64,000 bases of DNA, taken from positions 5,441 through 69,440 of the forward strand of contig JAQGMI010000152.1 in NCBI GenBank assembly GCA_028292435.1. The letters are read 5' to 3'. Both the position numbers and the translations under genes were made by a program. Below, piece after piece: positions 61,509 to 61,553 of the stretch (the stretch's first letter is position 1; each line of letters opens with the position of its first letter). The notes under the pieces are model-generated. The model saw nothing but the letters and a program-made list of their open reading frames with translations, was not told where the DNA came from and did not search any database. This DNA is from Betaproteobacteria bacterium (GTDB taxonomy: Bacteria > Pseudomonadota > Gammaproteobacteria > Burkholderiales > SG8-41).

Positions 61509-61526
61509 TTGCAAGTCCCGTGCCTT
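61509..61526 (-). promoter_or_regulatory. sigma-54 (-24/-12) promoter of the eCIS operon
   Basis: The minus strand reads AAGGCACGGGACTTGCAA. Against TGGCAC-N5-TTGCW it has GG and GC correctly spaced and only the first T differs. The predicted start near 61499 is ~38 nt upstream of GTG 61461. Confidence 0.8.
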
Positions 61527-61540
61527 AGACGAGAAAAAAT

Positions 61541-61553
61541 TAACCGCTTGATT
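61541..61553 (-). promoter_or_regulatory. IHF binding site
   Basis: The minus strand reads AATCAAGCGGTTA, an exact match to WATCAANNNNTTR. It is flanked by an A/T tract and centred about -47 relative to the predicted start. Confidence 0.6.

Follow-up and report, generated by a model that had tools for sequence, protein, structure and literature searches.

What switches on the operon for an extracellular contractile injection system (eCIS), a phage-tail-like particle that injects toxins? To our knowledge, little has been established about what induces eCIS loci, and the majority of them stay silent under laboratory conditions, which hampers ecological work on them as well as their application as programmable vehicles for protein delivery. 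The 64,000-nucleotide stretch of DNA analyzed here (the window) carries such an operon of about 33 kb on its minus strand and, divergent from it, a gene for an enhancer-binding protein (bEBP). Between the two lies a near-consensus sigma-54 site, which we call P1. Based on its position, its surroundings and its conservation in related loci, we propose, at a probability of roughly 85%, that P1 truly serves as a sigma-54 (RpoN) promoter and is the place from which the eCIS operon is mainly transcribed.

The operon extends from 61461 down to 28389 and is tightly packed: its genes overlap or are less than 100 nt apart, with the single exception of a 217-nt gap upstream of the LysM gene. Matches to Pfam beyond the first gene comprise a Pvc16_N terminator, two sheath proteins, two gp19-type tube proteins, a CIS_tube/LysM protein, a spike OB domain, gp25, baseplate J, a P2_I-like protein, a Peptidase_S74 fibre-like protein and an Afp15-like AAA+ ATPase. 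With an Afp16-like terminator, sheath, tube, spike, gp25, baseplate J, an Afp15-like ATPase and DUF4157 proteins all in one cluster, the cluster is, as judged by gene content, an eCIS. Between 41.6 and 61.5 kb neither sigma-70-like promoters nor intrinsic terminators are found in excess over chance, and the sigma-70-like sites inside the operon number 1 against 5.1 expected.

Some of the encoded proteins deserve mention in their own right. The 3' end of the operon (28389–34997, minus strand) encodes two proteins of more than 1000 aa that match DUF4157 (Pfam eCIS_core) and give no Pfam match over their remainder; these two giants are likely payload or toxin-associated proteins. The first sheath protein (55938–59087, minus strand; 1049 aa) matches sheath domains in its C-terminal ~270 residues only, and contains an unexplained insertion or extension of ~770 residues that is rich in Ala, Gly and Thr. 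A 466-aa protein encoded between the terminator and first sheath genes (59150–60550) is conserved in the clade and is without family assignment.

P1 is located in intergenic DNA on the operon strand, upstream of the first operon gene, where the minus strand from 61526 to 61509 reads AAGGCACGGGACTTGCAA by direct reading. The GG (61524–61523) and GC (61512–61511) dinucleotides show the canonical GG-N10-GC spacing, and the single mismatch to the consensus is an A for T at -26, the first base of the 16-mer AGGCACGGGACTTGCA. No other site in the 64 kb scanned comes within one mismatch of TGGCACG-N4-TTGCW. P1 is also the highest-scoring site in the window (15.7; next best 13.8) for a weight matrix based on approximate consensus frequencies. 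The predicted transcript start, taken as 12 nt beyond the GC, is at ~61499, which would give a 5' untranslated region of 38 nt up to GTG 61461; we take this GTG as the start of the first gene, and not the longer open reading frame from 61476, because the GTG and its context are kept in close relatives. A strict scan of positions 61300–62300 did not find a sigma-70-like promoter, and the G+C content of the promoter region is lower than that of the surroundings. Matches to the sigma-54 consensus are expected by chance about 0.95 times per shuffled window; the weight of P1 therefore rests on its position and conservation, since the count for this single motif is within chance expectation.

Immediately upstream of P1, AATCAAGCGGTTA forms the sole exact match in the window to the IHF consensus WATCAANNNNTTR, of which ~0.75 matches are expected by chance per shuffled window. 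An A/T tract (61573..61554) flanks this core on its 5' side, and its center is at about -48 relative to the predicted start at 61499. The initial annotation of this DNA had described a near-consensus sigma-54 site some 38 nt ahead of a start codon supported by a ribosome-binding site, and had proposed scoring the region with a position-weight matrix. The site is indeed present, with canonical spacing and unique in the window to within one mismatch, and it ranks first in the scan; the 38 nt are those between the predicted transcript start and the GTG, which is preceded by AAGGAGG. The exact IHF site beside an A/T tract was likewise found as described, its center shifting from the -47 given at the time to the -48 measured here. 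The coordinates of these and the following features are collected in Table 1.

Table 1. Features of the P1 region, the eCIS operon and the adjoining bEBP gene (positions in the window; dyad positions relative to the predicted transcript start)
Feature	Position	Strand	Remark
P1, -24/-12 core AGGCACGGGACTTGCA	61525..61510	minus	one mismatch to TGGCACG-N4-TTGCW
IHF core AATCAAGCGGTTA	61553..61541	minus	exact WATCAANNNNTTR consensus
Proximal candidate UAS, dyad GGGGCGTGTTACACCC	61604..61589	minus	starts at -105
Distal candidate UAS, dyad GGGTGTTGTGCGACCC with ACCC extension	61697..61682, extension to 61678	minus	starts at -198
Shine-Dalgarno sequence AAGGAGG of first operon gene	61473..61467	minus	direct reading
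First operon gene, 86 aa, GTG start	61461..61201	minus	start context cGTGGAC conserved
Operon beyond first gene	28389..61173	minus	Pfam matches
P2, sigma-54-like element CGGCATATAGTTTGCA	61957..61942	minus	second-best weight-matrix match in window
Candidate extended -10 TGCTATATT for bEBP gene	62001..62009	plus	inferred from conservation
bEBP gene	62157..63104	plus	divergent from operon; AAA+ sigma-54 interaction domain and weakly matched C-terminal Fis-type HTH

The longest open reading frame for the bEBP (62067..63104) begins with GTG. In two close metagenomic relatives of the window (loci L023 and L027), the orthologues have their first Met where the window has ATG 62157, and GGTGAG precedes that ATG by 7 nt. 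Translation probably starts at this ATG, and the product would be a 315-aa protein composed of an AAA+ domain and an HTH, without a sensory domain. Sigma54_activat (PF00158) matches residues 31–197 with an E value of 2.4e-59, and AAA_lid_14 is also matched. The HTH_8 match is weak (E 0.004; 17.3 bits, under the Pfam cut-off of 22 bits), and the C-terminal region aligns with the HTH of ZraR. The best PDB matches are ZraR, NifA, FleQ, NtrC1 and PspF (1e-64 to 1e-50), and the alignments with ZraR and NifA extend across the L1 loop.

The L1 loop of the bEBP, the element that contacts sigma-54 in such activators, reads GAYTDA, compared with GAFTGA in the canonical form; it preserves an aromatic residue (Y) and the T, and has D in place of G. 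Across the orthologues the loop follows GA[FY]T[DGN]A, with the aromatic residue and the Thr always retained. GAYTDA and GAFTDA are listed among the loop forms with which activation is preserved, and EBPs of Desulfovibrio vulgaris that have been assigned sigma-54 regulons contain them (PMC4641369); HrpS always carries GAYTGA naturally (PMC3105312). As judged by its residues, the loop of the present bEBP would be a variant that is reported to be compatible with activation. The lack of a sensory domain means that the firing of the activator, on which the operon had been suggested to depend, cannot refer to sensing of a ligand or a phosphoryl group by the bEBP itself. The bEBPs of four more distant loci (L009, L011, L012 and L018) have an N-terminal extension before the AAA+ domain that is REC-like by eye only; if these extensions are REC domains, the same promoter design would be wired to different inputs.

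Right behind the bEBP gene, separate short open reading frames (63462–63933, minus strand) contain pieces of a P4-type integrase (Arm-DNA-bind_3, Phage_int_M), and the integrase gene appears to be frameshifted. The window contains no tRNA gene. This arrangement suggests that the eCIS cluster is situated on the margin of an ancient genomic island. The other side of the window (1–27820) encodes four TctC/Bug-family receptors, acyl-CoA dehydrogenases, AMP-dependent ligases and hydantoinase A/B, a neighborhood that we take to be typical of Burkholderiales. A BLAST search of a plasmid collection with the region returned generic AAA+ domain similarity only.

For comparison, we collected 22 independent loci by means of aligned homologues of the terminator protein, using contigs from one genome per species. 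The loci represent Burkholderiales, Xanthomonadales-like genera (Dyella, Rhodanobacter, Tahibacter), Steroidobacteraceae, Methylococcaceae and Acetobacteraceae, as well as Acidobacteriota, Kofleriaceae, Rokubacteria, Binatia, Calditrichia and Nitrospira. The closest metagenomic relatives of the window are L023, L024 and L027, and the closest locus from a genome belongs to a Burkholderiales MAG with 67% identity in the terminator protein. In 13 of the 22 loci, the best sigma-54 match of the whole ~10-kb locus, both strands considered, falls on the operon strand in an upstream zone 230–520 bp before the terminator gene; the distance in the window is 352 bp. Such a placement is expected by chance with a probability of at most 0.025 per locus, which corresponds to a binomial P of 7.5e-16 for a zone that was defined after looking at the data. 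The zone also contains a near-tied second match in L001, and weaker GG-N10-GC elements are present at the equivalent distance in L006, L011, L018 and L019. In relatives with 87–92% identity in the terminator protein, the spacer has diverged strongly and GG...TTGC has been kept; these relatives read CTGGTACGACGCTTGCR where the window reads AAGGCACGGGACTTGCA.

A bEBP homologue adjoins the operon in 15 of the 22 loci. In 14 of these 15 it is immediately upstream and co-directional with the operon (L001, L003–L006, L008–L011, L016–L019 and L022), and a divergent bEBP gene is found only in L012, in the window and in L023, L024 and L027. The divergent activator gene beside the promoter, to which the initial annotation had drawn attention, is therefore a correct description of the window and not a general layout, since most relatives are co-directional. 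The geometry of the promoter survives inversion of the bEBP gene. Two loci with full upstream sequence, L007 and L015, have neither a bEBP gene nor a sigma-54 site, and L014 and L020 have the promoter (in L020 together with an IHF site) and no bEBP gene within 4–5 kb upstream.

The IHF site recurs at nearly the same place. Exact consensus matches in the orientation of the window are centered at -48 in L004, L005 and L030 and at -47 in L012; L020 has a further exact match at -38 and L018 one at -49 in the opposite orientation, and sites with one mismatch are found at -48 in L001 and L014. Over 19 promoters, the 42 bp between -70 and -28 contain five exact matches, and the remaining 177 kb another five. 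This amounts to a 222-fold enrichment (Poisson P 5e-11), and the test is a fair one because the consensus had been set beforehand, in the initial annotation. The closest relatives L023 and L027 keep the A/T-rich stretch and lack the exact IHF core. On this comparison, the predicted IHF site is widespread in the family and not universal.

Comparison between loci also revealed two candidate upstream activator sites (UAS) in the window, both dyads of the form GGGT-N8-ACCC, which the initial annotation had not named. A search for repeats in the spacer had yielded short weak repeats only. With at most one mismatch, dyad pairs are found at -198/-106 in L001, -196/-105 in L004, -194/-104 in L023 and -198/-105 in L027, and the core of the distal site, ACCCACCC, recurs. 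Shifted but similarly placed dyads are present in L003, L005, L008, L013, L016, L017, L020 and L022; the proximal type is located at -93 to -95 in L003, L008, L013 and L020 and at -84 in L022, and the distal type at -136 to -174 in other loci. Dyads are 18-fold enriched in the zone from -230 to -70 relative to the rest of the loci, with a P value (4e-16) that is generous, the pattern having been derived from the same loci after inspection. The IHF core is placed between the dyads and the -24/-12 core.

The GGGT-N8-ACCC dyads pair with the helix ERRxLGxLxKK in the HTH of the bEBP, which characterizes the clade of the window. In L012 and L030, the helix is KNRRxFxxLxRKH, and dyads of the type GGACAA-N-TTGTCC occur at about the same place (L012:4560–4600 and L030:about 845–865, compared with 61589–61697 in the window). 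A dyad type that changes with the HTH helix is the pattern that would be expected of cognate activator sites, and it points to co-evolution of the activator with its sites, which would move together as a single cassette. At the level of sequence, the complete enhancer-dependent architecture claimed for the window is upheld by these comparisons: the -24/-12 core, the IHF site and the bEBP are conserved, and the candidate activator dyads can be added to them.

The small protein encoded by the first gene of the operon belongs to a family that provides the first gene in most related eCIS loci and has the motif hP.A.DT.EGI..WWL. The family occurs whatever the type of bEBP, and with or without a bEBP; a different small first gene is found in the acidobacterial loci L011, L018 and L019. 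The 86-aa protein has no Pfam match, and its AlphaFold model (single sequence, pLDDT 70) consists of three helices plus a hairpin. As no significant PDB fold match was obtained (best E 0.65), we no longer regard the protein as a recognizable winged-helix regulator. It is also unlikely to be a bEBP-specific anti-activator, because the family is present in L009 and L012, where the bEBPs are of a type classed as REC by eye only, and the idea is weakened further by its presence in L015, which is without bEBP and without sigma-54 site.

A second sigma-54-like element, P2, shares the strand of P1 and is found 432 bp farther upstream, at some 200 bp from the start codon of the bEBP gene and pointing away from that codon. 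The GG and TTGC of P2 and its flank AATCTCTCAAAA...AGATTTT..TTGTAA are kept in L023, L024 and L027, while the spacer bases vary, and the distance between P2 and P1 ranges from 356 to 690 bp across relatives. There is no IHF consensus and no dyad upstream of P2, and no conserved open reading frame downstream of it. A scan of 61300–62200 with Rfam (E up to 1) matched no family, and the 430-nt spacer between P2 and P1 does not correspond to a known RNA. Upstream of the bEBP genes of distant co-directional loci, a P2-like element is not conserved. For the bEBP gene itself, a strict sigma-70 scan detected no promoter; the window shares with L023 and L027 an invariant block, AAATATAGCA as read on the minus strand, and conservation points to a candidate extended -10 element with P2 45–60 nt upstream of it. 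P2 may be either a distal second promoter or an operator in the control region of the bEBP gene.

From the motifs, their geometry and conservation, the gene content and the domains of the bEBP, we infer a route from input signal to transcript in which the sigma-54 holoenzyme would bind the GG and GC elements of P1 and stay there as a closed complex. An oligomer of the sensor-less bEBP would bind the dyads at about -198 and -105, and bending of the DNA by IHF at -48 would allow the GAYTDA loop of the bEBP to reach sigma-54. Hydrolysis of ATP by the bEBP would then open the promoter, and RpoN-dependent transcription would begin at ~61499, traverse the structural genes and finish with the 3'-terminal genes for the two DUF4157 proteins. 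Since the bEBP lacks a sensor domain, control of its synthesis or a partner protein would have to supply the input; whether P1 fires is probably decided at one of these levels, as for PspF, HrpS and VasH. The rpoN gene is not within the 64-kb window and its presence in the genome is assumed. Sigma-54 promoters have very low basal transcription without their activator, and this general behavior supports an operon that is off by default, a picture that P2 complicates.

Other readings of the region have to be weighed against this proposal. The -24/-12 and IHF matches might have arisen by chance in A/T-richer intergenic DNA, with the operon using an unrecognized sigma-70-type promoter; the chance expectations per shuffled window (~0.95 and 0.75) and the reduced G+C of the promoter region would fit. 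Chance, however, does not account for the conservation of the sigma-54 position across phyla (P about 1e-15), nor for an IHF site conserved at -48 or a cognate bEBP gene adjacent in 15 of 22 loci, and the scan of 61300–62300 offered no sigma-70-like site to take the place of P1. We regard this reading as extremely improbable. The activator itself could be questioned, since two of the six residues of its loop differ from GAFTGA and some proteins of this kind (TyrR, HupR and Rhodobacter NtrC) act without sigma-54. A bEBP-like protein working in this way is hard to reconcile with the retention of the loop aromatic residue and Thr in all orthologues and with the reports of GAYTDA and GAFTDA (PMC4641369) and GAYTGA (PMC3105312) in active EBPs, and it would leave the conserved adjoining -24/-12 element unexplained; we give it hardly any credence. 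It is somewhat easier to imagine, but still improbable, that the promoter depends on sigma-54 and that the adjoining bEBP is not its activator, or not its sole one, the signal being supplied by an EBP encoded elsewhere. L014 and L020, with a promoter and no bEBP gene within 4–5 kb upstream, could be read in this way, as could the missing sensor domain. Against it stand the tight association of bEBP and operon, the covariation of dyad type with the HTH helix, and the loci L007 and L015, in which, over full upstream sequence, the promoter is absent together with the bEBP.

The alternative that we take most seriously, while still considering it unlikely, accepts P1 as real and denies that it is the sole control point: P2 would be a second promoter, or parts of the operon would be served by internal promoters. 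P2 is the second-best sigma-54 match in the window and is on the strand of P1, its GG and TTGC are kept in L023, L024 and L027 despite the varying spacer bases, and the 217-nt gap upstream of the LysM gene could accommodate an internal start. P2 nevertheless lacks an upstream IHF consensus or dyad and a downstream conserved open reading frame or RNA family, and it is not found in more distant loci; its position 45–60 nt upstream of the candidate -10 of the bEBP gene would suit an operator for that gene equally well. For internal promoters, the sigma-70-like sites within the operon are below chance expectation (1 against 5.1). Based on these considerations, we retain P1 as the probable main start of the operon.

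The proposed mechanism is a textbook one and has a precedent in T6SS, where RpoN acts with EBPs encoded in the cluster, VasH in Vibrio and Sfa2 in the H2-T6SS of Pseudomonas aeruginosa (Bernard et al. 2011, as cited in PMC10482370). In V. cholerae, Hcp feeds back on VasH, so that a structural protein controls an EBP (PMC10482370). The present locus resembles T6SS in that a contractile injection cluster has its own bEBP and sigma-54 promoters before the structural genes. It differs in that an eCIS, known here from its genes, is an extracellular particle released by lysis and is not anchored in the membrane. Unlike VasH and Sfa2, moreover, the bEBP of the window is a minimal AAA+ and HTH protein from a different clade, and a fixed IHF site at -48 is part of the design.

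A sensor-less AAA+ and HTH bEBP beside a sigma-54 promoter is also found in PspF/pspA and HrpR/HrpS/hrpL. PspF is controlled in trans by PspA, and HrpS by HrpV; the pspA promoter also uses IHF. The window differs from these systems in its target regulon, in that no PspA- or HrpV-like partner was identified, and in the additional G to D change relative to the GAYTGA of HrpS. The layout, with two activator dyads ~100–200 bp upstream, an IHF bend between and a -24/-12 core, is that of the classical IHF-assisted sigma-54 promoters nifH/NifA, Pu/XylR and glnHp2/NtrC; what sets the present case apart is the GGGT-N8-ACCC dyad and the nature of the controlled genes, a 33-kb phage-tail-like operon.

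Among regulators adjacent to eCIS, those named in the literature searched are of the GerE/LuxR type, BTAD proteins and RfaH-like antiterminators (Geller et al. 2021, PMC8213781). They too are encoded next to eCIS, and they act through sigma-70-type activation or antitermination. The same study lists Sigma54_activat as a "shell" domain, with 49 occurrences and a 1.59-fold value, in its supplementary tables only, and the word "sigma" is absent from its main text (PMC8213781). Its tables contain Lcho_3032 (Sigma54_activat and HTH_8), Lcho_3033 (a small protein) and Lcho_3034 (afp16) of Leptothrix cholodnii (PMC8213781), and this order of bEBP, small protein and terminator matches the gene order found here. 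Searches of the literature for eCIS or contractile injection in combination with sigma-54, RpoN or enhancer-binding protein returned only papers on T6SS or unrelated ones. What is new is thus the attachment of a mechanism known for T6SS to an eCIS, of which we found no description in the literature searched. Sigma-54 is known to control machines at the cell exterior, namely T6SS, T3SS and flagella, and the present finding extends this theme to extracellular systems.

A broader reading can be put forward tentatively, and as a whole it is more doubtful than not: a large environmental clade of eCIS, spanning Pseudomonadota, Acidobacteriota, Myxococcota, Methylomirabilota and others, would share a dedicated mobile cassette consisting of the bEBP, two activator dyads, the IHF site at -48 and the sigma-54 promoter, with firing decided by a partner protein or by feedback of a particle component on the bEBP, which is sensor-less in the sub-clade of the window, in the way that Hcp acts on VasH. 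The product of the small first gene and P2 could take part in that feedback circuit. If this reading is true, expressing the sensor-less bEBP alone would be enough to induce eCIS loci that are otherwise silent, and this in many lineages that are uncultured or have yet to be tested. For the locus itself, a conserved enhancer-dependent promoter together with a sensor-less activator encoded in the cluster provides a concrete handle on eCIS expression: expression of the bEBP, or deletion of rpoN, the bEBP gene or ihf, should toggle particle production, and the approach should be transferable to many soil and freshwater lineages.
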